From assembly GCA_963752265.1 (NCBI GenBank), contig CAVVZW010000002.1, positions 5,262 through 69,261 of the forward strand: DNA of 64,000 nucleotides, given 5' to 3'. Source of the DNA: an uncultured Alphaproteobacteria bacterium. GTDB taxonomy: Bacteria; Pseudomonadota; Alphaproteobacteria; Rhizobiales; Xanthobacteraceae. Positions 1 to 15,824 of the stretch are shown here, in pieces. The stretch's first letter is position 1; each line of letters begins with the position of its first letter. The notes beneath the pieces were generated by a model. It ran no database searches and had not been told where the DNA came from. It saw only the letters and a list, made by a program, of their open reading frames with translations. A program made the translations under genes and the position numbers.

Positions 1-714
1 GATCAGCGTGGCAGGCCCGCCGGAGGTAGCCCCTTGCGAGGGATTCAGCGGGTGCGGGCAGTTTGAAGCGACCACGATCAGATTCATCTCCGCCCGCAGA
101 TCGGCGAAGTCGCCCGCCCGCTTGCAGCCCTCTTTCCAGAGAAAGCGCCCGGCATCGTCGAGCGCGACCGGCGCAAAAAAAGTGATGCAGGGCGAAATGT
201 CGCGGACGCCAAGCCCGATCTTGGAGACGGCAGCCAGAAAATTCTCCTGCGTGTTGCGCCTGCTCACGCCCGGCGAAGCGAGCACAGAGGCCGGCGTGGA
301 ACCGCCGACCAGAAGATCGTGCGCGCCGCTGGTATCCTCGATCAGCGAGAACACTACGTGCCCCATGTCGGACAGGATCACGCGGCCTTTCGAAATGGCG
401 GCGCTCCACTGTACTTTAATTGTATCGGCGCAGTTGATCCGCTCGGATGGATCTTCCTCGCGCCAGGCCAGCAGCGATACGCTGGCGTGGCCCGTATCGT
501 CGATGATCCGCAGCACCTCACCCCGGCGCAAAAGCAAGGTGGTGTACCAGCCGGCGGGCACCACCTCACGATGGATCACGGCATCAGGCGCAATCGGTGC
601 GGCATCCAACGCCGTCGGCTCCGGCAATCCCTTGGGCGTCAGTTCCTGTCCCGCGGCGCGAAGCTCTTCGTAGCGACGCCGGTTCTCGGCGATTTGCTGT
701 TGGGTCTGGGCCAT
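1..714 (-). CDS. Urea carboxylase-associated protein (DUF1989, UAAP1/CgdA-like), runs off the window edge
   Basis: Not in the ORF track (no stop in window). Manual translation from ATG 714: MAQTQQQIAENRRRYEELRAAGQ...ERINCADTIKVQW...GAHDLLVGGS...GDFADLRAEMNLIVVASNCPHPL. Confidence 0.8.
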   Translation of the reverse strand, partial: MAQTQQQIAENRRRYEELRAAGQELTPKGLPEPTALDAAPIAPDAVIHREVVPAGWYTTLLLRRGEVLRIIDDTGHASVSLLAWREEDPSERINCADTIKVQWSAAISKGRVILSDMGHVVFSLIEDTSGAHDLLVGGSTPASVLASPGVSRRNTQENFLAAVSKIGLGVRDISPCITFFAPVALDDAGRFLWKEGCKRAGDFADLRAEMNLIVVASNCPHPLNPSQGATSGGPATLI

Positions 715-731
715 CCTTCAACTCCAAACGA

Positions 732-1334
732 CTATTCAGTGATCGTGAAATGAGCCTCGACCGGCTTTCCTGCCTTGCCGTTGATCGGCAGAATGTCTTG
801 CGGACAGGCCGAAAAGGCGATGACGAGATCCATCTCCGCGCGCAGACGGACATAACCGCCCGGTATCGGCCGCGGCGGCGCGGCGAATTCCAGCGTCCCC
901 TCCCCGCTCCAGGGAATGTTCATGAACAGGTTAAGCGGACTTGGCACCTCGCCCGGCACCAGACCGAGTTCGGCCATGCCAGCAAAGAGATTGTCTGTAC
1001 AGTTGTCGTGATGGCCTTCAACGCCGAGGAACGCATAGCGATAGCGGTCGCACGCCGCGATCAGCGTATCGTGGACGCCGCCCGAGGTGTCTTCGATCAG
1101 GGTCAGGATCGGCCGCCGCTTGTTGGTCCGCAGCACGTCGCCGGGCCTTGGCACGAGATGCAGGCTGTGGGCGCGGGTGTGCTCGTTCGACATGAACTCG
1201 CCGAGATCCGCCCGGTTGAAGGCCCAGGTGTCGACGACCTGTTCGCCGTGGGTGTTGACGACGGTCACGCTCTGTCCGGCCGAGACGAATGCGGCCTTGC
1301 CGCGCCGCGCCGGAATTTCGATCAAGCTAGCCAT
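732..1334 (-). CDS. DUF1989 / urea carboxylase-associated family protein
   Basis: GEQVVDTWAFN, HDTLIAACD, HDNCTDN, PLNLFMN, LRAEMDLVIAFSACPQD motifs; start at MASLIEIP. Confidence 0.85.
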   Translation of the reverse strand: MASLIEIPARRGKAAFVSAGQSVTVVNTHGEQVVDTWAFNRADLGEFMSNEHTRAHSLHLVPRPGDVLRTNKRRPILTLIEDTSGGVHDTLIAACDRYRYAFLGVEGHHDNCTDNLFAGMAELGLVPGEVPSPLNLFMNIPWSGEGTLEFAAPPRPIPGGYVRLRAEMDLVIAFSACPQDILPINGKAGKPVEAHFTITE

Positions 1335-1359
1335 GGCAAATTCCCTCCCCGACTTTTGT

Positions 1360-2151
1360 TCAGCGCCTGCCGCCCGCGGTCTCTCCCGCGTATCGCTGGA
1401 TGAACTGCCGCGCGCGGTCGGTTTCGGGATTGGAGAAAAATTGCTCCGGCGATCCCGTTTCGACCACGCGGCCATGATCGAGAAACAGCACCCGCGTGGC
1501 GGCTTCACGCGCAAAACCCATTTCGTGCGTCACGACCACCATGGTCATGCCTTCGCGGGCGAGTTCGCGCATCACGACCAACACCTCACCGACCAATTCG
1601 GGATCAAGCGCGCTGGTGGGCTCGTCGAACAGCAAGAGGTCCGGCTTCATCGCCAGCGCGCGGGCGATGCCGACGCGCTGTTTCTGACCGCCCGACAGCT
1701 TGGCGGGGAAAACGTCGCGCTTGTCGCCAAGCCCGACTTTCGCCAGCAACGCCAGCGCTTCCTCTCTCACCTCGGCCTTGGGCCGCTTCTGCACTTGAAC
1801 CGGCGCTTCCATGAGGTTTTGCAGCACCGTCAGGTGCGGCCAGAGTGCGAAGTGCTGGAACACCATCCCGATATGGGTGCGGATCTGCGACAGCTCACGG
1901 TCGCCCATGACGACGCTGCCGCCGCTGATGCCGACTTCCTGGCCGTTCAGATAAATATGGCCGGCATCGGGGCGTTCGAGCCAATTGATACAGCGCAGCA
2001 GCGTCGACTTGCCCGAACCCGACGGCCCCAGCACGCAAACGGTCTCGCCCTTTTGAACGTGGAAGCTGATGTCGCGCAGCACTTCGAGATCGCCGAAGCG
2101 CTTGGATATGCCGACCACGTCGAGAACCTTGGTGACGTCTCTCACATCCAC
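1360..2151 (-). CDS. Polar amino acid ABC transporter ATP-binding protein
   Basis: Walker [34 protein letters not shown]. Confidence 0.95.
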
Positions 2152-2155
2152 TCCA

Positions 2156-2812
2156 CTACCGCCTCGCCGCCGCCATCCGATCGATCGTGTTCACGCCCGC
2201 CTCGATCACCAGACACAAGCCCCAATACAGGAACACCGCCGATATGAAAGCCGCGAACGGAACATAATGCCGCGACTGGATGGAAGCTGCCGCATGGGTC
2301 AATTCCGGCAGCGCGATGATGGTAAGAAAGGCGCTGTCCTTGACGATCTGGATCATCTGGTTACCGATCACGGGCCCTGCCGCCAGCAACAGCGGCGGCA
2401 GGATGATACGGCGAAACAGCGAAAGGTTGGAAAAGCCGAAGGCGGAGCCGGCTTCGATCGGCTCGCGCGGCTGTGCCGCCCAGGCCCCGCGAAGAATTTC
2501 CGCCATATAGGCCGCGTTGTAGATCGTCAGCGCCAAGAGCCCGGAGGTCCAGTTGTCGAGCCTGAGACCAAGCGAAGGAAGCCCGTAATAGACGATATAG
2601 GCAAACAGCAGGAACGGCACGCACCGCATCCCGTCGACGAAGCTGCGTGCGGCCCAGGAGAGCCACGGCTGCTTCGACATCAAAGCCGGCGTCAGGACAA
2701 ATCCGATCAGGAGGGCAGCTATGGCCGACAACAGCGACAGGATGGTGGTATTGGCGAGTCCGCTCAGGAGCAGGGAGCGCTCGCTCCAGACGATGCCGAA
2801 ATCATGGATCAT
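2156..2812 (-). CDS. Amino acid ABC transporter permease
   Basis: Hydrophobic; [10 protein letters not shown] and EAGSAFG loop. Confidence 0.93.
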
Positions 2813-3456
2813 GCCGCAGCCTCGGCCCGGAGCTGACGCCGTTCGATCCAGCGCTGCAACGAAACCAGCAGGAATACGATCGGCGCGTACAGCGCGAGCG
2901 CGACCATGAACGGCGGCAGCGGATCATAGGTCTGGGCACCGATCCGCACCGCTGCCCGCGTGATATCGACGACGCCGACCACAGCGAGCGCAGGCGTCAC
3001 CTTGATCAGCAGCGACATTTCATTGACGAGACCGGGAAGACTGACTCGCACGATCTGCGGCAGCACGATGCGGCGAAATCGAAGCATAGCGTTCATGCCG
3101 ACCGACTGCGCGGCCTCATACTGGTCCTTCGGAAAATTCATCAGCGCCGCGCGCCAGACCTCGCAGTTGAACGCGGCCGTATTCATGACCAAAGCGAGAA
3201 TCGCCGCCGAGATCGGGTCCATTGCGATGCCGATATTGGGAAGCGCAAAGAATAGCAGAAGCAACAGGGTTACGAGCGGGGTCGCACGCAGGATACTGAT
3301 ATAGACGGTCACCACACGCGCAGCGACCGGCACATCGGCCCAGCGCAGCACCGCTAGCGCGAGGCCGATCGGCGAGCCGATCAGGATGCCGGCGAGTGAC
3401 AGCAACACCGTCACGACGGCACCCTGAAGAATGGCCAGCAGATCGCCCCAGCTCAT
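2809..3456 (-). CDS. Amino acid ABC transporter permease
   Basis: RATPL and QYEAAQSVGM (EAA loop). Confidence 0.93.
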   Translation of the reverse strand: MSWGDLLAILQGAVVTVLLSLAGILIGSPIGLALAVLRWADVPVAARVVTVYISILRATPLVTLLLLLFFALPNIGIAMDPISAAILALVMNTAAFNCEVWRAALMNFPKDQYEAAQSVGMNAMLRFRRIVLPQIVRVSLPGLVNEMSLLIKVTPALAVVGVVDITRAAVRIGAQTYDPLPPFMVALALYAPIVFLLVSLQRWIERRQLRAEAAA

Positions 3457-3477
3457 GACCGATCAGCCGGTACTGAG

Positions 3478-4344
3478 TCAGAACTCGGGGTCCCACTTCG
3501 CCGGCAGGTCCGGGAACGAATTGCCGAACCACTTCTTCTGCAATTCGGCGAAGCGGCCGGTTTCCTTTTCCTTGGCAATGAAGCCGTTCAGGAAGTTGAG
3601 CAGCTCGGTATTGCCCTTGGCGACGGCCCAGGCCGGGAACGACTTGCCCGACACCGCCTGCCCCAATTCAAACACGGCGGGCTTTTCGGCTACCATCGTC
3701 TGGAGGTTGACAACGGTGTTGACGACATAATCGACGCGGCCGAGCGCCAGATCCTGGTAGGCTTCTGGATAGGAGGTGTACTCCACGACTTTGCCGAGCT
3801 TTCCGCCTTGCTTCTCCAGCATGGCGCCGAGTTCGGGCAACCGCGCCAGCAACGCGCTGCCGGCCTGTACGCCGACCGTCTTGCCGTTCAGATCCTTGAT
3901 CGACGAGATGCTCTTGTCGTCCTTGCGCTTCACATAGAAGTGGGTCGCGTCCGCAATTGGGCTGGTGAAGTCAAGCGACGCCAGCCTTTCCTTCGTGATG
4001 ATGACGGCCGTGATGGCGGCATCGTATTTGCCGGTGCTGACACCGGCGAGAATGCCGGTCCAGGGCAGGATCTGTTGCTTGACCTCGAACGGCGCGTATT
4101 TTTTCAGGTCTTCGATCATCTCGTTATCGAAGCCGGTCGGCTGGCCGTCCTTGACGAATTCGAAGGGACGGAAATCGTCCTCGGTCGCAACGATCAAGCC
4201 GCGTTTCTTGATTTCGTCGAGGCTTGCGGCCTGTGCGGCACCAAGCAACGCAGGAGCCGCGAACCACGCGGCGGTCACGCCCAAGGCGATGTGTAAAGCA
4301 AGACGTCTGGACAGTGAATGGCAGGTCTTCGAAACGGTCGTCAT
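3478..4344 (-). CDS. Amino acid ABC transporter substrate-binding protein (family 3)
   Basis: Signal peptide; TEDDFRPFEF, GFD, DLNGKTVGVQAGS; RBS GAGGAG before ATG 4344. Confidence 0.92.
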   Translation of the reverse strand: MTTVSKTCHSLSRRLALHIALGVTAAWFAAPALLGAAQAASLDEIKKRGLIVATEDDFRPFEFVKDGQPTGFDNEMIEDLKKYAPFEVKQQILPWTGILAGVSTGKYDAAITAVIITKERLASLDFTSPIADATHFYVKRKDDKSISSIKDLNGKTVGVQAGSALLARLPELGAMLEKQGGKLGKVVEYTSYPEAYQDLALGRVDYVVNTVVNLQTMVAEKPAVFELGQAVSGKSFPAWAVAKGNTELLNFLNGFIAKEKETGRFAELQKKWFGNSFPDLPAKWDPEF

Positions 4345-4367
4345 GATGGACTCCTCTTTTTGGCAGA

Positions 4368-5201
4368 TCAATCGAACTTAAATCCGTGTCGTCGCAGATA
4401 GGGTGGGAACGCCGCGCCTTCGGCCTTCGCCGCCTGACGGGCCTTGTCTTCGGACCAGCCGTAAAAGCTCACCTCACCGAACTCGGCGTTGGATCGCTGC
4501 TGGTCCTTCGGAATGGCGTGGCGCGCGTGCCTGCGGCGGTCGTAGTCGTCGAGCGATGCCGCTAGTGTGCTGTCGTCGTAACCGTCAGTGTGCGTCGTCA
4601 CGCCGCGCGGCAAACGCAGGCTGACATGACCTTCGGCAGCCGGATAACCGAGACAAAGCCCGGCGACGGGAAAGACGAGGTCCGGCAGCGCCAGAATGGC
4701 CGCGACCTTGTCGATCTCGTTGCGGATCACGCTGATCGGGCAGACGCCAAGCCCGCTCGATTCCGCGCAGAGGATCATGGTCTGCATCGCCAGCGCCGCA
4801 TCGACACTCGCATTGAAGAATCCTTCCAGCGTGCCATTTGCGACCGGCTTGTCGCGCAGTCGGCCGATACGATGGAGCCGCCTGGCGTCGCCGAGAAACA
4901 CAAAAAACACCGGCGCAATGCCGATCCAAGGCATGCCTGGAAACAGCTCGCCGATCGCGGCGCGCTTCCCGGGATCGCGCAAGCGCAGGATGGAGGCCTG
5001 CTGGAAATCCGATTTCGCCGATGCGCTGAGGGCACAGGCGGTCAGAAGATCCAGCAATTCCTCACTCGGCATTGTCTCGCCGTAGCGCCGCACCGTCTTT
5101 CGCGACAGCACGCGAGATATCAACTCATTGTCCCCGGCGCTCCCGCCTGAAGGACCGCCATCGCCGAAGCGATGGTTCAACGTATCTGCAATCGATGGCA
5201 T
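4368..5201 (-). CDS. NfsA/Frp-like nitroreductase / flavin reductase
   Basis: RKTVRRY, SAKSDFQ, DAALAMQT, AESSGLGVCPIS, GLCLGYP, RLP. Confidence 0.88.
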   Translation of the reverse strand: MPSIADTLNHRFGDGGPSGGSAGDNELISRVLSRKTVRRYGETMPSEELLDLLTACALSASAKSDFQQASILRLRDPGKRAAIGELFPGMPWIGIAPVFFVFLGDARRLHRIGRLRDKPVANGTLEGFFNASVDAALAMQTMILCAESSGLGVCPISVIRNEIDKVAAILALPDLVFPVAGLCLGYPAAEGHVSLRLPRGVTTHTDGYDDSTLAASLDDYDRRRHARHAIPKDQQRSNAEFGEVSFYGWSEDKARQAAKAEGAAFPPYLRRHGFKFD

Positions 5202-5322
5202 CAGCGTCGCTCCTGCTTGTCGCGACAGCTCTTTTCGTTGGCGATGACCGTGTCAACCCAAAGCTTCGGAACCATCGACCGGGACCTGGGGCAACTCATC
5301 ACCAACTCCATGAAAAATATGG

Positions 5323-5338
5323 AGCAAAGGACATGCCA
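5323..5338 (-). promoter_or_regulatory. sigma54 (-24/-12) promoter of the leftward operon
   Basis: Minus strand TGGCATGTCCTTTGCT fits TGGCAY-N5-TTGCW. Confidence 0.75.
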
Positions 5339-5445
5339 GATCGCGAACAGCGCGGCTTGCGCCGTGATCAACTGCGCGCTTTTGACGCCAAGTCCCTCTG
5401 GCGTTGCGGGGAATCGTACCCGCGACCTTCCCGTCACGCGAGCGA

Positions 5446-5470
5446 AAATACGAAGTATGCTTCGCAATTG
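5446..5470. promoter_or_regulatory. Palindromic operator copy 1 (likely MarR site)
   Basis: AAATACGAAGTATGCTTCGCAATTG, 23/25 identical to 6125-6149. Confidence 0.7.
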
Positions 5471-5571
5471 CGCCCGCCAGGCGGCCGACATCATAAGTTC
5501 GGCAATTCAAGGCGGCGGCTTTTCAGGCAGGCTGCACAGATTATAGCCGACAACCTCTCTGTCCGGATTGA

Positions 5572-6057
5572 TCAGTCCGGGGAGGCGGCTGTTTCTGCCT
5601 GGCTGGCGCGCGCAGCCACGACTTTTTGCATCATGACGATAAATCGCTTTTGCTCGGCGGTGCTCAGGCCCGCCAGCGTCTCATGATGCGCCGCCCGCGC
5701 CGAAACCTCGATCTGCTGCAACAGGCGCGAGCCGGATTTGGTCAGCCGGCACATTTGCGCCCGGCGATCCCGGCTATGCACGGTGCGTTCGATAAATTTA
5801 CGGGATTGCAACCGCTTAAGCGCGCCGGTGGTGGTGGTGCGATCGAGCATTACCTCCGCCGCCAGCGTGGTTTGATCGGCGGTTCCGCACCGGGCCAGCG
5901 CGGTCAGAAGGCTGTATTGCAGCGGCGTGAGATCAAAGGCCGCGCATCTTTCCTGGAACAACGCCACGTGGATTTGATGCAGCCGCCGGATCAGAAATCC
6001 CGGCCGTTTCTCCAGCGGCCAGTTACCTCTGCGCTGTCGTACTGCCTTCCCGATCAT
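5572..6057 (-). CDS. MarR family transcriptional regulator
   Basis: RPGFLIRRLHQ, LTPLQYSLL, LDRTT, DRRA winged-helix motifs. Confidence 0.92.
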   Translation of the reverse strand: MIGKAVRQRRGNWPLEKRPGFLIRRLHQIHVALFQERCAAFDLTPLQYSLLTALARCGTADQTTLAAEVMLDRTTTTGALKRLQSRKFIERTVHSRDRRAQMCRLTKSGSRLLQQIEVSARAAHHETLAGLSTAEQKRFIVMMQKVVAARASQAETAASPD

Positions 6058-6080
6058 GCGCGTTATATCCCCGTCATCGC

Positions 6081-6097
6081 TGCACTCAATTGATGCA
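6081..6097. promoter_or_regulatory. NtrC-like box
   Basis: TGCACTCAATTGATGCA resembles TGCACCA-N3-TGGTGCA; unusually close to the -24 element. Confidence 0.4.
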
Positions 6098-6102
6098 ACC
6101 TA

Positions 6103-6118
6103 TGGCACGAATGTTGCT
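6103..6118 (+). promoter_or_regulatory. sigma54 (-24/-12) promoter of the rightward operon
   Basis: TGGCACGAATGTTGCT matches the consensus. Confidence 0.8.
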
Positions 6119-6123
6119 GTATT

Positions 6124-6149
6124 CAAATACGAAGTATACTTCGCATTTG
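6124..6149. promoter_or_regulatory. Palindromic operator copy 2 (likely MarR site)
   Basis: CAAATACGAAGTATACTTCGCATTTG; perfect 14-bp core CGAAGTATACTTCG over the predicted +1. Confidence 0.75.
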
Positions 6150-6199
6150 GCCGGCTCTATAATCCACAATAAATTAAGCTCTGGAAGAGGAGATCAGAC

Positions 6200-7477
6200 A
6201 TGTCCGTGAACACCAGCTTCGACCTGCTGCTGCGCGGGGGCCGCGTGATCGATCCGGCCGCGGGCGTTGATGGTTTGAGGGACGTGGCGATCCGCAACGG
6301 CAAGATTGCCGCCGTTCAATCCGACATCCTGCCTACCAGTGCCCGCGAAGTCATAGACGTCAGCGGCAAGATCGTCCTGCCGGGGCTGATCGATACCCAC
6401 GCCCATGTCTATCAATATGTCACCGGCCGCTTCGGTGTGAACGCCGACATGGTGGGCGTCCAATCCGGAGTGACGACGCTGGTCGATCAGGGCGGTCCGT
6501 CCTGCATGACGCTGCCGGGCTTCCGGCATTTCGTCGCGGAACAGGCCAAGTCACGCACGCTGGCCTTTCTGTCGGCCTATCTGGTCGGCGGCCTGGAGGG
6601 ACATTATTACCCCAACCTCTATAGCCCCGACTGTGTCGAGATCGACGCCACCGTGAAGGCAGCCACAGCTAATCGCGACCTTGTTCGTGGCATCAAGGCG
6701 CATGCCGAGATTGGCGGCTTTGCCCGCTGGGGCATTCGCGTCATCGAGATGGCCGCCGAGATCGGACGCCGCGCCGAATTGCCGGTCTATGTTCATTTCG
6801 GTCAGCTCTGGGGGCTACCGGCCAGCGGCACCAATGGCGAAGACGTCGACACCATTCTTGAACGTGTGATTCCGCTGCTGCGATCAGGTGATATTCTCGC
6901 GCACCCGTTCACGCGTCACCCCGGCGGCTTCGTCAATCGCGAGGGCGAGGTGCATCCCGTCATTCAGGCCGCGCTCGACAGGGGGCTGAAAGTGGACGTC
7001 GGGCACGGCAGCCACTTCTCTTATCGTCTCGCCCGCAAGGCGATCGCCGCCGGCATCATGCCGACAACGCTTGGCGCCGACATTCACGGCTATAACACCC
7101 ACATCCCGGCGCCTGCGGGGACACCTGACGAAGCCGCCGACGACGAGAACCATCCGTTCGCGGGACAGGCCAAGTTCAGCCTGGTGCAGGCCATGAGTTC
7201 GATGATGGCGCTGGGCCTGACACTTGAGCAGGTCGTGCCGATGGTGACTTCGCATCCGGCGGAAATGCTCGGGCTTTCCGGCGTGATCGGCACGTTGCGC
7301 TCGGGCGTCGATGCCGACGTCACCGTGCTCGACGAGATGCGCGGCCGGTACATCCTGCGCGACAATGAAAAGACGGAAGTGGTTGCCGACCGCCTGTTGC
7401 AGCCCGTGTTCTGCTTGCGGGCCGGCGTCCGTTATGATGCCATCGCTCCGATCCTGCCGCGCGCGGTGGCCGCTTAG
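6200..7477 (+). CDS. Dihydroorotase-like / deacetylase amidohydrolase-superfamily metallohydrolase
   Basis: PGLIDTHAH, IKAH, VHFG, AHPF, DVGHG, GADIH metal ligands. Confidence 0.88.
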   Translation: MSVNTSFDLLLRGGRVIDPAAGVDGLRDVAIRNGKIAAVQSDILPTSAREVIDVSGKIVLPGLIDTHAHVYQYVTGRFGVNADMVGVQSGVTTLVDQGGPSCMTLPGFRHFVAEQAKSRTLAFLSAYLVGGLEGHYYPNLYSPDCVEIDATVKAATANRDLVRGIKAHAEIGGFARWGIRVIEMAAEIGRRAELPVYVHFGQLWGLPASGTNGEDVDTILERVIPLLRSGDILAHPFTRHPGGFVNREGEVHPVIQAALDRGLKVDVGHGSHFSYRLARKAIAAGIMPTTLGADIHGYNTHIPAPAGTPDEAADDENHPFAGQAKFSLVQAMSSMMALGLTLEQVVPMVTSHPAEMLGLSGVIGTLRSGVDADVTVLDEMRGRYILRDNEKTEVVADRLLQPVFCLRAGVRYDAIAPILPRAVAA

Positions 7478-7507
7478 CCGTCGGCGGCTAGTGGAGCTGC
7501 AAAACGA

Positions 7508-9902
7508 ATGGCATCCGTCGAGCGCGGGCCCGAGCCTGCTTCAACCACGGCGGCGGAATCGGGTCAGGGCGTAGGCGCCCGGCTCCTCCGCAAGGAAGAT
7601 GACCGTTTCTTGCGCGGCCGCGGCCAGTATGTCGCCGATATCAGACTGCCAGGCCTTCAAGACGTTGCCTTCGTTCGCAGTCCGCTGGCGCATGCCCGCA
7701 TAAAAGCCATCCACGTTCCCGACCGCTATCGTGACGTTGTCTTCACCGCCGATGATCTGGCCAATGTGAAGCCGATCCGCGCGGTGACGGCGCTGCCCGG
7801 TTTCAAGGTCTCCGAACAGTCCGTGCTCGCAAGCGGCAAGGTCCGTCATGTCGGCGAGATGGTGGCGATGTGCGTGGCGGAGACGCGGGCCGAAGCCGAA
7901 GACATCGCCGCCGCGGTGACGTTGGACCTCGAACCGCTTCCCGCTGTCTATGACATGCAAAAAGCGCGTGAGCCCGGTAGCGCGCTGGTGCACGAACACT
8001 GGGGCGACAATGTCTTCCTCGAAAGTTTCTTCGAGGTCGACATCACGCAGGCGTTCGACGCGCCGATCAAGGTCAGCCATGAAATCTCGACTGCGCGCCA
8101 ATGCATGTCGCCGCTCGAAGGCCGCGGGGTCGTGGCCACTTTCGATCACAGGCTCGATCAGCTCACGCTTTATACCGGCGCGCAGATGCCACACATCGTG
8201 CGCAACGGACTATCCGACACGCTCGGCATCGAGCAGGGCCGCATTCGCGTCGTGTCGCCCGATATCGGCGGCGGCTTCGGACACAAGGGAATTCTGCTGC
8301 CGGAAGAAGTCTGCCTTTCCTGGCTCGCGCTGTACAAAAACCTCACCGTCCGCTGGATCGAGGATCGGCGCGAGCATCTGAGCGCCAGTTCCAATTGCCG
8401 CGAGCATCACTACAAGATCACCGTCTATGCCGACCGCGACGGCAAACTTCGCGGCATCGATTGCGAGGCAACCGTCGATTCCGGCGCCTACTCGTCCTAT
8501 CCCTTTTCGGCCTGCCTCGAAGCCGCGCAAGTCGTCAGCATTTTGCCGGGCCCCTATCGGATGCCGGCCTATCGCTGCCGCACCTATTCGGCGGCCACCA
8601 ACAAGTGCCCGATTTTGCCGTATCGCGGCGTGGCGCGAACCGGCGTTTGCTTTGCGCTCGAACTCATGCTCGATGCGGTCGCCGTGGAAGCAGGGCTTGA
8701 GCCGCACGAAGTCCGGTCGCGCAACCTGGTCGCGCCGGAGGAAATGCCGTTCGAGAACATCACGAAAAAGCATTTCGACAGCGGCGACTACCCGGAAGCC
8801 ATGCGGCGTATGTTAGAGGCGGTCGACGTCGCGGCGATCCGCAAGCGACAGAAGACCGGAGAGCCGGATGGGCGGCGGATCGGTTTCGGAATGTCCGTCT
8901 ATTGCGAACAGGCGGCCCACGGCACGTCGGTTTACTCCGGCTGGGGCATTCCCATGGTGCCCGGGCACGAGCAGGCAACCGCACGGATGACGCCCGACGG
9001 CGGGCTGGAGCTGCGGGTCGGCGTGCATTCGCACGGCCAAAGCATGGAGACGACATTGGCCCAGGTCGCCAACCAGATCCTCGGCATCGACACCGCGAAA
9101 ATTCGCGTCATCCACGGCGATACCGCGATGACGCCCTATTCGACCGGAACCTGGGGTTCGCGCTCGGCAGTGATGGCCGGCGGCGCGGTCGGCACGGCCT
9201 GCGAGATCATTGCCGAACGGGCCAAACGCATCGGCGCCAAACTCCTGCAACTCGATCCGGAATCTGTGATCTTGCGCGACGGACGGGTCTGTGGACCGAA
9301 CAGCAGCATCGGCCTTCCCGAGATCGCCCATACCTGGTACCGGCGGCCGCAAGACTTGCCGCCCGACGTCGATCCCGCCGGGCTGGAAGCGACCGGTGGC
9401 TACAAGCCGCAACGCGACAGCGGTACCTTCAGCTATGCGGTGCATGCGGTGACGGTGGCCGTCGATCCCGACCTCGGCGACGTCGAGATACTGGACTACG
9501 TGATCGTTGAAGATGGCGGCGTGCTGCTCAATCCCATGGTCGTCGACGGTCAGATTTTTGGTGGCCTCGCCCAGGGCATCGGAACGGCGCTCTATGAAGA
9601 GATGCCGTTTGACGCCGCAGGCCAGCCGCTTGCCACAACGTTGGCGGATTATTTGTTGCCGGGACCGACGGAGGTCCCCGAGCCGCGCCTCGATCATATG
9701 GAGACGCCGTCGCCTTACACCATGTTCGGCGTCAAGGGCATCGGCGAAGGCGGCGCCATTGCGCCTCCGGCAGCGATCACCAATGCCGTAAACGACGCGC
9801 TGCGGCCACTTGGGGTCAAACTTCTGCATTCGCCGATTTCGCCGCGCCGGATTGTCAAAGCCGTGCTGGCGGCCCGGCGGCCGCAAGGCGAGACGCGTAT
9901 GA
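7508..9902 (+). CDS. Xanthine dehydrogenase-family molybdopterin-binding large subunit (reads in frame into the next gene)
   Basis: RKEDDRFLRGRGQYVAD, GGGFG, PYRGVAR, HGQSMET, GQIFGGLAQG, KGIGEGG. Confidence 0.9.
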
Positions 9903-10735
9903 AAGCCGCACCCTTCGCCTATGAGCGGCCGTCAAACCTGGACGCGGCCATCGCCTTGATGGCTGAAGCCAAAGGCGCCGCCAAGATCATGGCCGGCGGA
10001 CAATCGCTCGGTCCGATGCTCAATCTTCGGCTGGTCCAGCCGGATTTGATTATCGATATTACTGGGCTGGACGAACTCAAAACCGCCGAGCAGAGCGGCG
10101 ATGAGCTCGTGATCGGCGCGTGCGTCACGCATGGCGATATTGAGGACGGACGGATTCCCGACGTCACGCACCAAGCGATGCAGCGAGTCGCAGGCGGCAT
10201 CGCCTACCGCGCCGTTCGCAACCGCGGCACGATCGGCGGCTCGCTATCACACGCCGATCCCGCGGCGGATTGGGTTTCGGCCTTGCCGGCGCTCGGCGCC
10301 AAAGTTCGGCTGCGAAGTTCTGCCGGGCATCGAGACCTTGCGATCGAGGATTTCACGACGGGCGCGCTGGAATCCGCCCTTCAAGAAAGCGAACTGGTCG
10401 AGGCCGTGCGTGTTCCCGTCATGCGAGCCTCCGCGCGCTGGGGTTATGTGAAAGCCTGCCGCAAACCCGGCGAGTTCGCCCACGCCATCGCCGCCGTGCT
10501 GATCGATCCGGAAGCCGGAACAGGACGCGTGGTGATCGGCGCGATTGAAGCGCCGCCGATCGTCCTGACCGACGCCTCACCGCTATTCGGTGGCAAGATC
10601 ACCGGCAACTTCAAGCGGGAGTTCATCACAAGCGCGGCTGACGCCCTCTTGATCAAAGCCGGCATCGCCGATGCCGCCGACCGGCATATCCACGTCACGA
10701 TATTGCGCCGGGCGATCGAGGAGGCCGCGGCGTGA
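9899..10735 (+). CDS. Molybdenum hydroxylase FAD-binding (CoxM-like) subunit
   Basis: Internal MKAAPFAYERP; AGGQSLGPMLNLR, RNRGTIGGSLSHADPAAD. Confidence 0.88.
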   Translation: MKAAPFAYERPSNLDAAIALMAEAKGAAKIMAGGQSLGPMLNLRLVQPDLIIDITGLDELKTAEQSGDELVIGACVTHGDIEDGRIPDVTHQAMQRVAGGIAYRAVRNRGTIGGSLSHADPAADWVSALPALGAKVRLRSSAGHRDLAIEDFTTGALESALQESELVEAVRVPVMRASARWGYVKACRKPGEFAHAIAAVLIDPEAGTGRVVIGAIEAPPIVLTDASPLFGGKITGNFKREFITSAADALLIKAGIADAADRHIHVTILRRAIEEAAA

Positions 10736-11916
10736 CGACGATTGGCCTCACCGTCAACGGGCGCGCGGTCAACAAGCCGGTCGATCCGCGCACACATCTG
10801 GCGGATTTCCTGCGCGACCAGCTCGACCTGACCGGGACCCATCTCGGTTGCGAACACGGCGTGTGCGGCGCCTGCACGCTGTTGCTCGACGATATGCCGG
10901 CGCGCTCGTGCATCACTTTTGCGGCGGCCTGCGACGGCGCGCACGTCACCACGATCGAAGGTCTGGATAACGACGAGATCGCAACCGAATTGCGCGCTGC
11001 GTTCAGCCGCGAACATGCTTTGCAATGCGGCTATTGCACGCCGGGCATGCTGATATCGGCGCGCGATCTCGTTTTGCGTCTCGAGATCTCGGATGAGCGC
11101 GCAATTCGCGTCGGCATGAGCGGAAATTTGTGCCGGTGCACCGGCTATGTCGGAATTGTGCGCGCGATACGCTCGGTGATCGATGCGCGACGAGGCCGCG
11201 GGATCGCGCCAATTCATGGCGCCGGGCGCCAGCAGCTCGGACCGGTCGGATCCGGCAATGGCATACTCACGAAATCAGCCGGCGTTGCCCGACCGGTGAC
11301 TTCGGAGATTCAGGAGCCACAGGCAAGCGGCACCTCGTTGCATGTTCCGGATTTCGCACCTGACAACAACTTCAACGAGCATTTCACCGTCGCCTTTCCA
11401 CCCGACGAGGTCTACGAGATGTTCGCAGACGTGAAGCGGGTCGCGGCCTGCCTGCCCGGCGCTGCACTGACGGCCATCCCGGCCCCGGACCGCGCCGAGG
11501 GACAAATCAGCGTCAAGCTCGGCCCGATCTCGGCGAACTTTCGTGGCGCGGTAAGAATCGAGCGCGATCCCACAACGCTCTCGGGCCGGATCATCGGGGT
11601 CGGAAACGATCGGCGCAGCCGCTCGTCCACGCAAGGCGACGTCCGCTATCGTTTGTTGCCGACCGAAGGCGGGACATCGACACGCGTCGAGCTTTCGATC
11701 GGCTACAGCCTGCGCGGCTTTCTGGCCCAGATCGCGCGCGAAGGCCTGGTGCGCGACCTTGCCAAACGGCTGACGGCGGAGTTCGCCCGCAACCTCAGCT
11801 CAACCCTGTCAGGCACCGCGCCGGAACAGGCGAAATCGCTCAACGGCCTTGTGCTCGCATTCGATCTTTTGAAGAAAACGCTATCGCAAATCCTTGGAAA
11901 AGATCGGAGCTCCTAG
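10732..11916 (+). CDS. 2Fe-2S subunit (CoxS-like) fused to a CoxG/SRPBCC domain
   Basis: GCEHGVCGAC, QCGYCTPG, NLCRCTGY; C-terminal VAACLPGA...VKLGPI. Confidence 0.9.
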   Translation: MTTIGLTVNGRAVNKPVDPRTHLADFLRDQLDLTGTHLGCEHGVCGACTLLLDDMPARSCITFAAACDGAHVTTIEGLDNDEIATELRAAFSREHALQCGYCTPGMLISARDLVLRLEISDERAIRVGMSGNLCRCTGYVGIVRAIRSVIDARRGRGIAPIHGAGRQQLGPVGSGNGILTKSAGVARPVTSEIQEPQASGTSLHVPDFAPDNNFNEHFTVAFPPDEVYEMFADVKRVAACLPGAALTAIPAPDRAEGQISVKLGPISANFRGAVRIERDPTTLSGRIIGVGNDRRSRSSTQGDVRYRLLPTEGGTSTRVELSIGYSLRGFLAQIAREGLVRDLAKRLTAEFARNLSSTLSGTAPEQAKSLNGLVLAFDLLKKTLSQILGKDRSS

Positions 11917-12018
11917 CGCTCGCTAGCCTCTGCATCGGCATGTCCCGTTGAAATCGACGTTACTCTGGGTTAGAGGCGGTGCTGCGGCCACCGAGAAAAA
12001 AGACCGGGAGAAACGGCG

Positions 12019-12900
12019 ATGATGGAAGGTTTCAAAAAGGAAACGCTGCATGTGAACGGCGTGGACATCGTGCTGCGCCATGGCGGAAAGGGACCGCCGC
12101 TGCTCCTGATGCATGGCAATCCGTTCACGCATTTGTCCTGGAATCGCGTCGCGCCCGACCTCGCCCAACGCTTCACGGTGGTGACGCCGGATCTACGTGG
12201 TTACGGCGACAGCTCCAAGCCCGACGGCGGCGACGGCCACTATGCCTACTCGTTCCGCGAGATGGGCAAGGATATGATTGAGGTGATGAAGACACTGGGA
12301 TTTAGCAGTTTCTCGGCGGCTGGCCATGATCGCGGCGCACGGGTGCTGCACCGGATGTGCCTCGATCATCCGCAAACGGTCAGCAAGGCCTGTTTTGTCG
12401 ACATGCTGCCCCAGCATCACCTCCTCAATAATGTGACATTCAATTGGGGCAAATTCTCCTGGCACTGGTTCTTCATGATTCAGCCAACACCCTATCCAGA
12501 GACGATGATCAACAACGATCCGGAATTCTTTCTTCGCAAGAAATTGTCAAAGACCGGTCAAGGCACGAGCTTCTTCGTTCCGGAAGCACTCGATGAATAT
12601 ATTCGCTGCATCAAGAATCCGCGAACGGTCTACGCCATGTGCGAAGACTATCGCGCAACCGTGTCTTGCGATCTCGAAATGGACACGGCCGATTTCGACG
12701 CCGGAAAACGGGTGATCTGCCCCACCTTCCTGCTATGGGGCGCCACCGGCGGCGTCGGCCGCAACCACAATGCGAAAGAGATCTGGTCGAAATACGCGAC
12801 CAATATTGCCGGCACGCTGGCCGCACCTGCCGGACATTATGTGCAGGAAGAAGCCCCGAAAGAGACGCTCCAGGCCATGTTGGGCTTCTTTGCAGATTGA
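12019..12900 (+). CDS. Fluoroacetate dehalogenase-family alpha/beta hydrolase
   Basis: HGNP, GHDRGAR, WHWFF, CEDYRA, GHY. Confidence 0.82.
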   Translation: MMEGFKKETLHVNGVDIVLRHGGKGPPLLLMHGNPFTHLSWNRVAPDLAQRFTVVTPDLRGYGDSSKPDGGDGHYAYSFREMGKDMIEVMKTLGFSSFSAAGHDRGARVLHRMCLDHPQTVSKACFVDMLPQHHLLNNVTFNWGKFSWHWFFMIQPTPYPETMINNDPEFFLRKKLSKTGQGTSFFVPEALDEYIRCIKNPRTVYAMCEDYRATVSCDLEMDTADFDAGKRVICPTFLLWGATGGVGRNHNAKEIWSKYATNIAGTLAAPAGHYVQEEAPKETLQAMLGFFAD

Positions 12901-12950
12901 AATGGGCAAGGACCGTCGTATAAAGACACGAACAACCGAGGAGATTCCCG

Positions 12951-13160
12951 ATGGCCATGACCCGTTCCCTTCCTGTGGCCGTTCCGCCCGCGATCCCGGT
13001 TCGCGAGATTTTGCCCTGGGCGATCTTCTCCGGCTTGCTGCTGGTCCTTGGCATCTATTTTGTCGGCGTCGAGGAAGGCGCTCTCTCCATCTTCAACGGC
13101 ATGTATGTGCACGAATTCGTGCATGACGGCCGCCATTTACTCGGCTTCCCCTGCCACTGA
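12951..13160 (+). CDS. cbtB: Cobalt transporter subunit CbtB
   Basis: One TM helix plus HEFVHDGRHLLGFPCH. Confidence 0.92.
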   Translation: MAMTRSLPVAVPPAIPVREILPWAIFSGLLLVLGIYFVGVEEGALSIFNGMYVHEFVHDGRHLLGFPCH

Positions 13161-13180
13161 CAGCGTTGCAGCACGCTCCG

Positions 13181-13948
13181 ATGACCCGGAAACTGCTGGT
13201 GCGCGGCATGCTGCTCGGTCTGATCGCCGGGCTTCTTTCCTTTGGCTTCCTCAAATTGGCTGGCGAGCCTTCGGTTGACCGCGCCATCGCTTTCGAAAGT
13301 GCGATGGAACAGACCAAGGCGGACGAAGCCAAAGCCAAGGGCCTGCCTGCGCCGGCCGAATATCCCGAACTCGTCAGCCGCTCCGTTCAATCGGGCGTTG
13401 GATTGCTGACCGCGGTAATCGTCTATAGCACCGCGTTTGGCGGCATTTTTGCGCTGGTCTTCGCCGTCGCTTTTCGCCGCATGGGCGACTTTAGCCCGCG
13501 CACTACCTCGGCCTTGCTGGCGACGGCCGGTTTCGTCAGCGTATACCTCGTGCCGATGCTGAAATATCCGGCCAATCCACCGTCGGTCGGTCTGGCCGAG
13601 ACGATCGACATGCGGACCAATCTTTATTTCGCGATGATCCTGATTTCGCTTGCCGCCGTGACTGCCGCTGGAATGCTGCGGCTTCGGCTCAATCCGCGCT
13701 TCGGCAGTTGGAACGCGGGGCTAATATCGGGTGGCGTCTACGTCCTGATCGTCAGCGGCGTCGCGTTCATGCTGCCCGACGTCAATGAAGTGCCGGAAGG
13801 CTTTCCGGCGACGGTGTTGTGGCAGTTCCGGATCGCTTCACTGGGTGGACAGGCCGTCATGTGGGGTGCGCTTGGCCTGCTATTTGGCATCGCCGCCGAG
13901 CGGGTCGTCGCGGTGCGCCAACCGGCGCTGCGACGTGCGGCGGTCTGA
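13181..13948 (+). CDS. cbtA: Cobalt transporter subunit CbtA
   Basis: EPSVDRAIAFE, KYPANPPSVG, FPATVLWQFRIAS. Confidence 0.92.
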   Translation: MTRKLLVRGMLLGLIAGLLSFGFLKLAGEPSVDRAIAFESAMEQTKADEAKAKGLPAPAEYPELVSRSVQSGVGLLTAVIVYSTAFGGIFALVFAVAFRRMGDFSPRTTSALLATAGFVSVYLVPMLKYPANPPSVGLAETIDMRTNLYFAMILISLAAVTAAGMLRLRLNPRFGSWNAGLISGGVYVLIVSGVAFMLPDVNEVPEGFPATVLWQFRIASLGGQAVMWGALGLLFGIAAERVVAVRQPALRRAAV

Positions 13949-13973
13949 GTCTCTCCGGAGCGGCAGGTGAAGC

Positions 13974-14549
13974 ATGACGATGCGTCTTCATTTGCTTTGC
14001 TCGGCTTCGACCGCCTCGACGAGCGCGGTCGCTTTCGCGGCTGACGAGCCGCTCGATCCTAAGGGACGTGAAAGCCTTTCCAACCTCGCAGGCCGCTTTC
14101 CCTCCTGCGATATCATCCTGCGCAGTCCGGCGCTTTGCGCTCGCCAGACCGCGGATGGCCTTGCGCTCACGTCATCCGTGGAGCCATTGCTGCGCGATTG
14201 CGATTTCGGCCGCTGGGCCGGACGTTCGCTTGAAAACGTGGAAGCCGCCGAGCCGGCAGCGGTTGCGGAGTGGCTGCGAAATCCGCGCGCGGCGCCGCAT
14301 GGCGGCGAGTCCTTTGTTGACGTGACGAGGCGCGTCAACGGATGGATGGACCAGATGCTCACCCAAACGGGCTCTGTTCTTGCCGTTACGCACGGCATGG
14401 TGATCCGTGCCGCCATCGCTCACGTGCTTGGCGCAGGCCCGGAGGCTTTCCGGCATATCGACGTCGCGCCGCTCACGCGAGCCAAACTGTCGGGCGGAGG
14501 CGGACGCTGGACGCTCGCCTCGCTGATCTCGCCGAGAGACCTGCGATGA
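13974..14549 (+). CDS. Histidine phosphatase-family protein with degenerate RHG motif
   Basis: SPALCARQTA, LRDCDFGRWAG, PHGGES, VTHG; N-terminus reads LLCSAS. Confidence 0.8.
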   Translation: MTMRLHLLCSASTASTSAVAFAADEPLDPKGRESLSNLAGRFPSCDIILRSPALCARQTADGLALTSSVEPLLRDCDFGRWAGRSLENVEAAEPAAVAEWLRNPRAAPHGGESFVDVTRRVNGWMDQMLTQTGSVLAVTHGMVIRAAIAHVLGAGPEAFRHIDVAPLTRAKLSGGGGRWTLASLISPRDLR

Positions 14550-15199
14550 CGGGCCGCGTCAACAGCAGGAAGGGACGCCGATCGATATCCCTGCTGATTG
14601 CTGTCGTGTCGATGCTCGCGGTCACCCCGGCTCGCGCCCATCATCAGGGATCCAGTGACGGACCGATACGGGGCGTCGCTATTCTGGCGATTTCCCACGG
14701 CGAGATGCCGATCGTCGCCAGATATCGCAGCCAGGTGCTTGACCTCGCGGCCCGCCAACCCGTGACGGACCCGACCTTGCGCCGGCTCACTGGCTTCGTG
14801 AGCCTGCAAACCTTTGCCTGCTTTTGGGGGCTCGTTCCCGGCAGCCTCGCCGACGAACAAAGCCCGTTCAATGAATGCTCCCACGCCTATCTGGCGGGGG
14901 TGCGAGAGCTGCTGGTGCACATGACGGCCATGCCCGGCGACCAGTCCGCGGCAAAGGCGCTTGAAGCGCGCATGGATGCGGAACTCGCAGCCAACCCCGA
15001 CCGCAACGCCGTGTGTTCGCACAGCGGCCAAATTTTCGACAGCGCCGATGTAATCGGGCCGGACTGGCAGCTCGCGCCACTGCATCTGCCGACCGTCCTG
15101 ACGTTTTCAGCGTTTGTGGCGCTGCTCGTCGCAGGATTTGCCGTCGCCGGCCGCCGGCGGCTTTTTCGCAAAACCGAAATCTCTAGCGCCGCGTCGTAA
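14546..15199 (+). CDS. Exported, C-terminally anchored Cys/His-containing hypothetical protein
   Basis: ATGA overlap with the upstream gene; signal peptide ending ARA-HH; C-terminal TM followed by RRR. Confidence 0.7.
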   Translation: MTGRVNSRKGRRSISLLIAVVSMLAVTPARAHHQGSSDGPIRGVAILAISHGEMPIVARYRSQVLDLAARQPVTDPTLRRLTGFVSLQTFACFWGLVPGSLADEQSPFNECSHAYLAGVRELLVHMTAMPGDQSAAKALEARMDAELAANPDRNAVCSHSGQIFDSADVIGPDWQLAPLHLPTVLTFSAFVALLVAGFAVAGRRRLFRKTEISSAAS

Positions 15200-15815
15200 A
15201 CTGGTCCGCCGCGCGACGGCATTCCCACTTCGCGCGCTCGAGATCAGGCCGGTCGTCCTCAACTTCCGGATAACCGAGGCAGAGATAGCCGATGAACTTC
15301 CACGACGCGGGTACGTCGAGGATTTCGTTGACGCGCGCTGGATTCAGGATCGAAACCCAGCCCAGACCTATTCCTTCCGCACGCGCCGCGAGCCACATCG
15401 AGCAGATAGCAGCGACGACGGAATATTCGATCATCTCCGGCATCGTCATTCGCCCGAGGCCGTGGCCTGTCTGGCTCTGCTTGTCCGCGAAGACGGCGAG
15501 ATGACCGGGCGCTTCCTCGAGCCCCGCGAGCTTGAGCGTCGCGTATTGCGACGCCCGGTCGCCGGAGTAAGAACGCAGCGCCTCCGCGTTGCAGACTTTG
15601 AAATCTTCGATGACCGCGCGGCGGCGTGAGGGGTCCTCAACGATGACGAGCCGCCAGGGCTGGCTCAGGCCCACGGAAGGCGACAGGCAGACGGTCTCGA
15701 TGAGGCGTTCGATCGCGCCTTGCGGCAGCGGGTCGCGGCGGAAACGCCGCACGTCGCGGCGCCACACGAACAATTCATGCAGTTGGCGGCGAAATGCTTC
15801 GTCGAATGCGACCAT
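15183..15815 (-). CDS. bluB: 5,6-dimethylbenzimidazole synthase
   Basis: WRRDVRRF, SPSVGLSQPW, LKLAGL, GLGWVSI. Confidence 0.93.
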   Translation of the reverse strand: MVAFDEAFRRQLHELFVWRRDVRRFRRDPLPQGAIERLIETVCLSPSVGLSQPWRLVIVEDPSRRRAVIEDFKVCNAEALRSYSGDRASQYATLKLAGLEEAPGHLAVFADKQSQTGHGLGRMTMPEMIEYSVVAAICSMWLAARAEGIGLGWVSILNPARVNEILDVPASWKFIGYLCLGYPEVEDDRPDLERAKWECRRAADQFTTRR

Positions 15816-15824
15816 CAGAATTCC

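Follow-up and report, generated by a model that had tools for sequence, protein, structure and literature searches.

A gene cluster at the left edge of a 64-kb stretch of DNA (64,000 nucleotides, C2:5262-69261, hereafter the window) from a Bradyrhizobium metagenome-assembled genome (MAG; 84% complete, 5.38-Mb assembly) is best read as a catabolic, nitrogen-scavenging locus under dual control, a reading to which we give a probability of about 0.55. Its two operons carry one sigma54 promoter each and share a palindromic operator around the gene of a MarR-family regulator, and the locus is probably MarR-gated. The compound it handles would be small and rich in nitrogen, most likely a heterocycle resembling a nucleobase, a hydantoin or a cyclic guanidine, or an amino-acid conjugate. 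The invariant core of the system consists of an amidohydrolase and a molybdenum (Mo) hydroxylase that resembles quinoline 2-oxidoreductase (Qor), and the arm encoding an importer, DUF1989 proteins and a reductase is an accessory module of a single Bradyrhizobium lineage. Near-identical DNA is present in metagenomes from moss, peat and soil.

A preliminary description of this DNA had listed the genes, the two sigma54 promoters and the shared palindrome, all of which are confirmed here, and had sketched a pathway of import, ring hydroxylation, ring opening and ammonia release. This sketch is partly supported and, with amendments, still offers the best single reading. Gene families were assigned with Pfam and NCBIfam profiles, which bore out each family that had been named (nitroreductase, ATP-binding cassette (ABC) importer, DUF1989, amidohydrolase, Mo hydroxylase and hydrolase).

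Sigma54 promoters and a predicted locus-specific operator around marR

The control region contains the following features:

5324..5338, minus strand: sigma54 -24/-12 element of the left operon, TGGCATGTCCTTTGC, zero mismatches
5446..5469, unstranded: predicted palindromic operator, copy 1, about 110 bp upstream of the left -24 element
5517..5553, minus strand: conserved non-coding block, CTATAATCTGTGCAgCCTGCCTGAAAAGC, directly after the marR stop codon, from a 12-locus alignment
5572..6057, minus strand: MarR-family regulator (PF01047 and PF12802)
6103..6117, plus strand: sigma54 -24/-12 element of the right operon, TGGCACGAATGTTGC, zero mismatches
6125..6148, unstranded: predicted palindromic operator, copy 2, over the predicted start site of the right operon

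The sigma54 motif TGGCAY-N5-TTGC has exactly two zero-mismatch matches in the 64 kb, at 5338..5324 on the minus strand and at 6103-6117 on the plus strand, and each lies upstream of one operon and faces it. The proposal of one sigma54 promoter per operon is thus borne out by motif, spacing and orientation, and also by conservation in relatives. A 20-bp palindrome, AAATACGAAGTAT[G/A]CTTCGCA, matches exactly at 5446-5466 and 6125-6145 only, where no match is expected by chance. Because its 15-bp core has no further exact copy in the whole assembly, the regulator is likely to be local rather than global. At the right promoter, the palindrome begins 8 bp past the -12 element and therefore covers the predicted start site. 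The operator is shared insofar as the palindrome is present at both promoters, but the left copy lies upstream of its promoter and not over the start site. The regulator itself has a winged-helix MarR domain. The two operons had been described as diverging from marR, which is correct for the right operon, whereas the left operon is co-directional with marR.

In the right intergenic region of approximately 80 related loci, only the sigma54 box, the palindrome and the ribosome-binding site are conserved. Both sigma54 boxes and palindromes are kept across approximately 80 Bradyrhizobium and Tardiphaga loci and in other Rhizobiales families, and the flanking DNA diverges. On the left side, the 12-locus alignment revealed conservation of the sigma54 box, of the palindrome 130-157 bp upstream of the box, and of the block at 5517-5553. 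The left box is conserved as TGGCAYGTCCYTTGC in relatives that have the left arm. A perfect TATAAT and a GCAG-N-CTGC dyad are found in the conserved block, which is located 180-215 bp upstream of this box and could represent an enhancer-binding site, a sigma70 -10 element or promoter, or an RNA element. In other taxa, marR adjoins the amidohydrolase gene down to 40% identity. The genome encodes approximately seven bacterial enhancer-binding proteins, none of them on the contig of the cluster.

Downstream of the right sigma54 promoter, some Bradyrhizobium species have two to three tandem operator copies at intervals of 24-27 bp (L060:9888-9956, L045 and L066). An NtrC-like box at 6079-6095 was set aside, as it is conserved in the nearest subclade only, and scans for sigma70 promoters and terminators returned nothing informative. 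A 97-amino-acid (aa) open reading frame (ORF) at 5201-5494 on the minus strand was dismissed; it overlaps the start of the reductase gene and spans the promoter and the operator.

RpoN-dependent expression in Bradyrhizobium sp. DOA9

Expression data are available from a 2026 study, in which rpoN mutants of Bradyrhizobium sp. DOA9 were analyzed by RNA-seq during free-living N2-fixing growth (PMC13207237). The RpoNc sites tabulated there upstream of differentially expressed genes include those of BRADOA9_v1_42168, a 'D-aminoacylase' with the box TGGCACGAAGCTTGC at -102, and BRADOA9_v1_42166, an NCS1 permease with the box TGGCACGATTTATGC at -39 (PMC13207237). In the rpoN mutants, the NCS1 permease was consistently down and the 'D-aminoacylase' was affected (PMC13207237). 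In our analysis of the DOA9 locus (L045), the distance from box to gene is exactly 102 bp for the amidohydrolase orthologue and exactly 39 bp for the NCS1 gene, and the two boxes flank marR. The left palindrome of DOA9 is located directly between the sigma54 box and the start codon. Since DOA9 also has two sigma54 promoters and operators around marR, this design is ancestral.

The marR-centred design is therefore RpoN-dependent in at least one strain, DOA9, a statement that covers the DOA9 orthologues and not the DUF1989 arm. The earlier proposal of sigma54/nitrogen control combined with a local repressor gains from the promoter and operator footprints conserved in approximately 80 relatives and from the RpoN-responsive DOA9 orthologues; MarR would bind the operator, and NtrC would probably be the activator.

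The amidohydrolase and the Qor-like Mo hydroxylase

The right operon and its downstream neighbour have the following genes:

6200..7477, plus strand: cog3964/PRK09237 binuclear-metal amidohydrolase (NF006689, 432 bits versus a cut-off of 371)
7508..9901, plus strand: Mo hydroxylase large subunit of the CoxL/QorL type
9896..10735, plus strand: FAD subunit of the CoxM type (FAD_binding_5)
10732..11916, plus strand: [2Fe-2S] small subunit fused to a CoxG/SRPBCC domain (Fer2, Fer2_2, COXG)
12019..12900, plus strand: alpha/beta hydrolase, a lineage-specific neighbour that is probably outside the system

The amidohydrolase has the HxH, K, H, H and D metal ligands of the cog3964/PRK09237 family, and these residues (H67, H69, K166, H199, H235 and D294) are conserved in comparison with 8wzy and 2ogj. 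It had been called a cyclic-amidohydrolase-like enzyme, which is not supported: the models for dihydroorotase, hydantoinase and allantoinase match only the N-terminal 60-90 residues (the sandwich) with 45-72 bits versus cut-offs of 280-730, and no full-length cyclic-amidohydrolase match exceeds its cut-off. Lists of homologues contain generic names only, such as 'dihydroorotase' or 'amidohydrolase/deacetylase'. The protein belongs to the same PRK09237 family as the cog3964 enzymes 2ogj from Agrobacterium and BmulJ_04915, with the same binuclear metal ligands, but is only 30-40% identical to them, and its subfamily is defined by the Mo hydroxylase and MarR neighbours. Ornelas and co-workers reportedly found in 2013 that cog3964 members hydrolyse acetylated hydroxy acids in vitro. 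Because the characterized members are esterases or deacylases, ring opening can be proposed for this enzyme by inference only.

The Mo hydroxylase has the domain architecture of the xanthine dehydrogenase family (PF01315, PF02738, PF20256, PF00941, PF00111 and PF01799): a large subunit in which a hammerhead domain is combined with two MoCo-binding domains, an FAD subunit, and a subunit with a double [2Fe-2S] domain. Its large subunit is closest to that of quinoline 2-oxidoreductase from Pseudomonas putida 86 (QorLMS; 1t3q; E 1e-148, about 40% identity), ahead of CO dehydrogenases. The similarity to QorLMS extends to the L/M/S architecture, to a YRGV-type loop and to the catalytic Glu near the C-terminus of the large subunit, where GIGEGG aligns with GMGESA of QorL. 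Different from QorLMS, of which it is not an orthologue, the enzyme described here always has a cog3964 amidohydrolase as partner, has a small subunit fused to CoxG, and would be under sigma54 and MarR control. The fusion of the [2Fe-2S] and CoxG domains is conserved in relatives.

The same data bear on whether the locus could be a form II aerobic CO dehydrogenase cluster. The top NCBIfam model of the large subunit is the group 5 CO dehydrogenase large subunit, and a CoxG domain is present, but the scores of the CO dehydrogenase models (552 and 460 bits) are far below their cut-offs (950 and 991). The active-site loop reads PYRGVAR instead of the AYACSFR of 8uem and thus lacks the AYxCSFR signature of form I CoxL with its Cu-binding Cys, and the large-subunit gene is always paired with the amidohydrolase and transporters. 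This explanation can practically be dismissed. An N-heterocycle as substrate, as suggested initially, is plausible in view of the proximity to quinoline 2-oxidoreductase rather than to CO dehydrogenase and of the NCS1 permeases in 21 of 65 loci. Together, the NCS1 linkage and the similarity to Qor point to a ring of the nucleobase, hydantoin or cyclic guanidine type.

Alternatively, the substrate could lack a heterocycle. The amidohydrolase would then deacylate an N- or O-acyl compound, like D-aminoacylase or the cog3964 esterases, and the Mo enzyme would act on the product as an aldehyde or hydroxy-acid oxidoreductase. This would agree with the cog3964 membership, with the hydroxy-acid oxidases encoded beside relatives at 43-45% identity, with glyceraldehyde dehydrogenase as the second-best NCBIfam model of the large subunit, and with an importer of the amino-acid type. 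It is difficult to reconcile with quinoline 2-oxidoreductase as the closest structure, with the linkage of NCS1 permeases to the core, with sigma54/nitrogen-limitation control and with the DUF1989 partners, and we regard it as rather unlikely.

In the MAG, CoxL and CoxM are joined in frame to a 1075-aa Mo subunit by one extra base near 9891-9895. In approximately 70 relatives, CoxL is about 797 aa long and its gene overlaps coxM by ATGA, and the extra base is missing from near-identical contigs of three independent public runs. The CoxL-CoxM fusion is thus probably a one-base assembly error, a long-read consensus indel in the MAG. A metagenomic relative (L147:3776-5998) shows a single 740-aa gene call that joins the FAD, [2Fe-2S] and CoxG parts; this may be an artefact too, as neighbouring genes are split in the underlying long-read assembly. 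In 30 of 65 related loci, a Rieske protein of approximately 110 aa ends the extension of the right operon by a Liv-type ABC system (e.g., L134:20620-20952); this small protein is a possible redox partner for the Mo enzyme.

Distribution and modularity

Prevalence was determined in an even set of 150 Bradyrhizobium species, and gene layouts were counted in 65 full-length loci, among which the closest relatives are over-represented. Of the 150 species, 56 have the amidohydrolase orthologue. The orthologue of DUF1989-X, a DUF1989 paralogue of the left arm, occurs in 14 of 150, all of which (14/14) also have the amidohydrolase, at a distance of approximately 6 kb and on the same contig save for one fragmented assembly. 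The two arms therefore co-occur in one direction: every left arm in this set comes with the core, but the core lacks a left arm in 42 of 56 species.

In loci without the left arm, the role in transport passes to an NCS1 permease of the nucleobase/hydantoin type or to a Liv-type ABC system. Of the 65 loci, 30 carry the ABC importer and DUF1989 arm, and in seven of these the right operon ends with an NCS1 permease gene. A further 14 combine an NCS1 gene left of marR with a Liv-type ABC system after the fused coxS-coxG gene, and 16 have the Liv-type ABC system only. An NCS1 permease is hence tied to the core in two different positions. With about 75% identity, the arrangement marR-amidohydrolase-coxL-coxM-coxS::G is also found in further families of the Rhizobiales, and with 55% it extends to one other alphaproteobacterial order; metagenomic relatives with 57-61% identity adjoin Mo hydroxylase genes as well. 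Because the pairing persists to approximately 55% identity and the neighbours change at 43-45%, the functional unit is the amidohydrolase subfamily together with the Mo hydroxylase.

In a proteobacterium outside the Alphaproteobacteria (L110:3809-10655), the operon begins with MarR and an amidohydrolase orthologue of 64% identity and continues with genes for an AllG-like protein, an SDR, a 2OG-Fe(II) oxygenase and an NMT1-type ABC importer. Another oxidase may stand in for the Mo hydroxylase in this organism.

This modularity raises the question of whether the two arms are independent modules that share regulators, with uptake and deimination of a guanidino- or ureido-amino acid on the left and an unrelated heterocycle on the right, juxtaposed as both serve nitrogen scavenging. 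The 42 of 56 species that have the core without the left arm, and the loci in which the core has other transporters, would fit this view. So would DUF1989-X homologues that occur elsewhere with the same ABC type, M20 and arginase-family enzymes and no Mo enzyme, and two other genera in which a DUF1989-X homologue and the core are on different contigs or 1.9 Mb apart. Yet, within Bradyrhizobium the left arm always lies by the core (14/14) and bears the same locus-specific palindrome, and its UAAP lineage differs from the carboxylase-linked one. We regard independence of the two arms as unlikely.

The left arm and its DUF1989 proteins

The genes of the left operon are listed from its distal end:

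L002:4519-5226, just left of the window: UAAP2 (TIGR03424), last gene of the left operon
1..714, minus strand: UAAP1-type DUF1989 protein, clipped by the window edge (full gene L002:5163-5975, 270 aa)
732..1334, minus strand: DUF1989-X, a third DUF1989 paralogue of about 200 aa (PF09347, E 3e-47)
1360-2151, minus strand: ABC ATPase of a polar-amino-acid-type importer (importer as a whole 1360..4371)
2156-2812 and 2809-3456, minus strand: two ABC permeases
3478-4371, minus strand: SBP_bac_3 binding protein
4368..5201, minus strand: NfsA/NfrA/Frp-like NADPH flavin/nitro reductase (PF00881), first gene of the left operon

The closest relatives of the binding protein are Gln/Arg-type binding proteins, and the closest PDB entries to the reductase are NfrA2, NfrA1 and NfsA. 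An NfsA-type reductase next to a MarR regulator is a common detoxification pairing, and the locus might accordingly sense a nitro-aromatic or quinone xenobiotic via MarR and neutralize it with the reductase and the oxidoreductase. However, it encodes an importer and not an exporter, it has sigma54 promoters with RpoN-dependent expression under nitrogen limitation, and most genomes that carry the core lack the reductase, which makes a detoxification role highly improbable.

Two DUF1989 proteins had been noted in the window, and both are present; the third, UAAP2, lies just outside, to the left, where it had been expected. Adjacent UAAP1 and UAAP2 are a feature of the carboxyguanidine deiminase CgdAB, and both proteins exceed their NCBIfam equivalog cut-offs (UAAP1: TIGR03425, 234 bits versus 206; UAAP2: TIGR03424, 305 versus 285). 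DUF1989-X is neither UAAP1 nor UAAP2, and its closest structure is 3oru. Its long ORF spans 732-1514, but the true start is near 1334, as alignments of orthologues begin at residue ~60. The three-Cys Zn site of DUF1989 (PMC12560246) is complete in DUF1989-X and UAAP2, and UAAP1 keeps one Cys and has lost two. UAAP1 and UAAP2 would thus fit a pair of one catalytic and one non-catalytic protein. The DUF1989 fold and the three-Cys Zn site are shared with the trimethylamine N-oxide demethylase Tdm (9q59), but Tdm combines it with a GcvT domain in one large protein, whereas the proteins described here stand alone with approximately 200-270 aa.

A urea carboxylase and an allophanate hydrolase had been named as genes to look for on the left of the window; no urea or guanidine carboxylase and no allophanate hydrolase is adjacent in the 5.2 kb examined. 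No urea or guanidine carboxylase above cut-off was found in the genome of the MAG (84% complete), and it is also missing from two carriers of the left arm, G013 (97% complete) and the closed genome G040. A separate UAAP2 lineage with approximately 70% identity is located directly beside a full-length carboxylase in G016, G024 and G032. Since carriers of the left arm lack the carboxylase and the carboxylase-linked UAAP2 belongs to another lineage, the left-arm UAAP pair is best regarded as a carboxylase-independent paralogue. A literal CgdAB role is therefore unlikely, and judging from gene content, the substrate of the pair cannot arise by the known carboxyguanidine route. An allophanate hydrolase, the enzyme that completes the guanidine carboxylase pathway, is encoded far from the cluster in the related genomes G040, G013 and G068, and the MAG has only a partial match at a contig end. 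Further differences from that pathway are the third DUF1989 protein, the NfsA-like reductase and the amino-acid-type importer, and no guanidine riboswitch was detected, as no Rfam family reached its gathering score in positions 1-16000.

DUF1989-X also has homologues in two further proteobacterial families and in other classes; they come after an ABC system of this type and lie beside an M20 amidohydrolase and an arginase-family enzyme, neighbours that suggest a continuing guanidino/ureido theme. A paralogue of DUF1989-X with approximately 60% identity in other Bradyrhizobium strains (with LysR, NCS1 and MFS genes) provided no clear lead.

A model for control and catabolism

The nitrogen-scavenging reading can be cast into the following model. 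MarR, encoded between the two sigma54 promoters, would bind the locus-specific 20-bp palindrome. At the right promoter, MarR on the start site would block the amidohydrolase-coxLM-coxS::G operon; at the left promoter, where the palindrome is located between the upstream block and the -24 element, MarR could hinder activation or read-through from marR. Sigma54 and a distant enhancer-binding protein, probably NtrC, would add control by nitrogen limitation, and release of MarR is expected to come from the substrate or an intermediate. We infer the order of the reactions and the substrate class. The Qor-like Mo hydroxylase would oxidize a carbon beside a ring nitrogen, and the binuclear-metal amidohydrolase would then cut the resulting amide or ureide bond. 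The accessory arm would contribute uptake by the amino-acid-type ABC system, an NADPH flavoprotein and three Zn-type DUF1989 enzymes, which would free ammonia from a guanidino or ureido fragment without an ATP-dependent carboxylase. The statement of the preliminary description that the substrate cannot be read from the sequence holds.

Several observations weigh against this model. To our knowledge, the sole characterized cog3964 enzymes are hydrolases of acetylated hydroxy acids and not cyclic amidohydrolases, and relatives with 43-45% identity neighbour FAD/FMN hydroxy-acid oxidases or unrelated genes instead of N-ring genes. The binding protein resembles an ordinary polar-amino-acid receptor. 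The species that have the core without the left arm indicate that the DUF1989 step is not obligatory. The position of the left operator is unusual for a repressor, and the DOA9 genes were expressed without added inducer, suggesting that MarR control is leaky or more complex.

A more specific version of the pathway is tentative, and we consider it doubtful. The Mo hydroxylase and the amidohydrolase would open a cyclic guanidine or ureide ring, possibly of an imported heterocyclic amino acid, to an N-acyl- or N-carboxy-guanidine, which the DUF1989 trio would deiminate, and the NfsA-like flavoprotein would handle an N-O or imine intermediate. If true, this would constitute an ATP-free route from ring compounds to allophanate or urea and ammonia, and would provide the first physiological role for this cog3964 subfamily and for the third DUF1989 clade.

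Comparison with known systems and significance

In E. coli, the Rut operon is activated by sigma54/NtrC and repressed by RutR, and it encodes a nitroreductase-family protein and an alpha/beta hydrolase. The locus described here is similar in that a nitrogen-limitation sigma54 promoter and a local repressor govern ring breakdown for nitrogen. Different from Rut, it lacks the RutA monooxygenase and RutB and has a Mo hydroxylase and a metal amidohydrolase instead, and its regulator is of the MarR and not the TetR type. The nic/NicR and pic/PicR systems combine a MarR-type repressor and palindromic operators with a Mo hydroxylase that starts N-heterocycle degradation, a combination that is shared by the present locus. 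However, the nic and pic clusters supply both carbon and nitrogen and contain dioxygenase, deformylase and maleamate genes, which are not found here, and we know of no sigma54 dependence in these clusters.

A literature search for DUF1989, cog3964, carboxyguanidine deiminase and pathway terms did not retrieve a description of the cluster. Nor did the databases and papers searched yield a characterized pathway that would explain the genes.

The nitrogen-regulated core is present in about a third of the sampled Bradyrhizobium species, which are dominant soil and root bacteria. The amidohydrolase subfamily and 'form II CoxL'-type enzymes in general have no assigned role. With two promoters and one specific operator, the locus itself offers a handle for finding the substrate, and cultured strains cover its variants: B. 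oligotrophicum S58 has the full set, around S58_43480, and DOA9 the NCS1 form (BRADOA9_v1_42166-42168). As the orphan UAAP1/UAAP2 pair demonstrates, DUF1989 deiminases are not bound to the presence of guanidine carboxylase. Once the compound is identified, soil organic-nitrogen turnover would gain a further route, and this would aid the annotation of thousands of genes named 'dihydroorotase', 'CO dehydrogenase' or 'urea carboxylase-associated'.

Boundaries of the cluster and neighbouring genes

The alpha/beta hydrolase at 12019-12900 had been described as a dehalogenase-like member of the pathway. Its score with the haloalkane dehalogenase model is 63 bits versus a cut-off of 241 and the gene occurs in 3 of 80 related loci; it is probably not part of the system. 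A plasmid megablast of the whole region returned piecemeal matches to ABC and Mo-subunit genes only, without synteny. On the left, the cluster is bounded by a small Flp/Fap-type pilin gene directly behind UAAP2 (L002:4210-4365, approximately 0.9-1.05 kb from the window edge), and the genes beyond it are unrelated. On the right, positions 13166-16595 of the window encode a cobalamin-related CbtA, a CobC-like histidine phosphatase and CobS; these genes are unrelated to the cluster and mark its right boundary. A second nitroreductase-family gene beside cobS in this interval may encode BluB.

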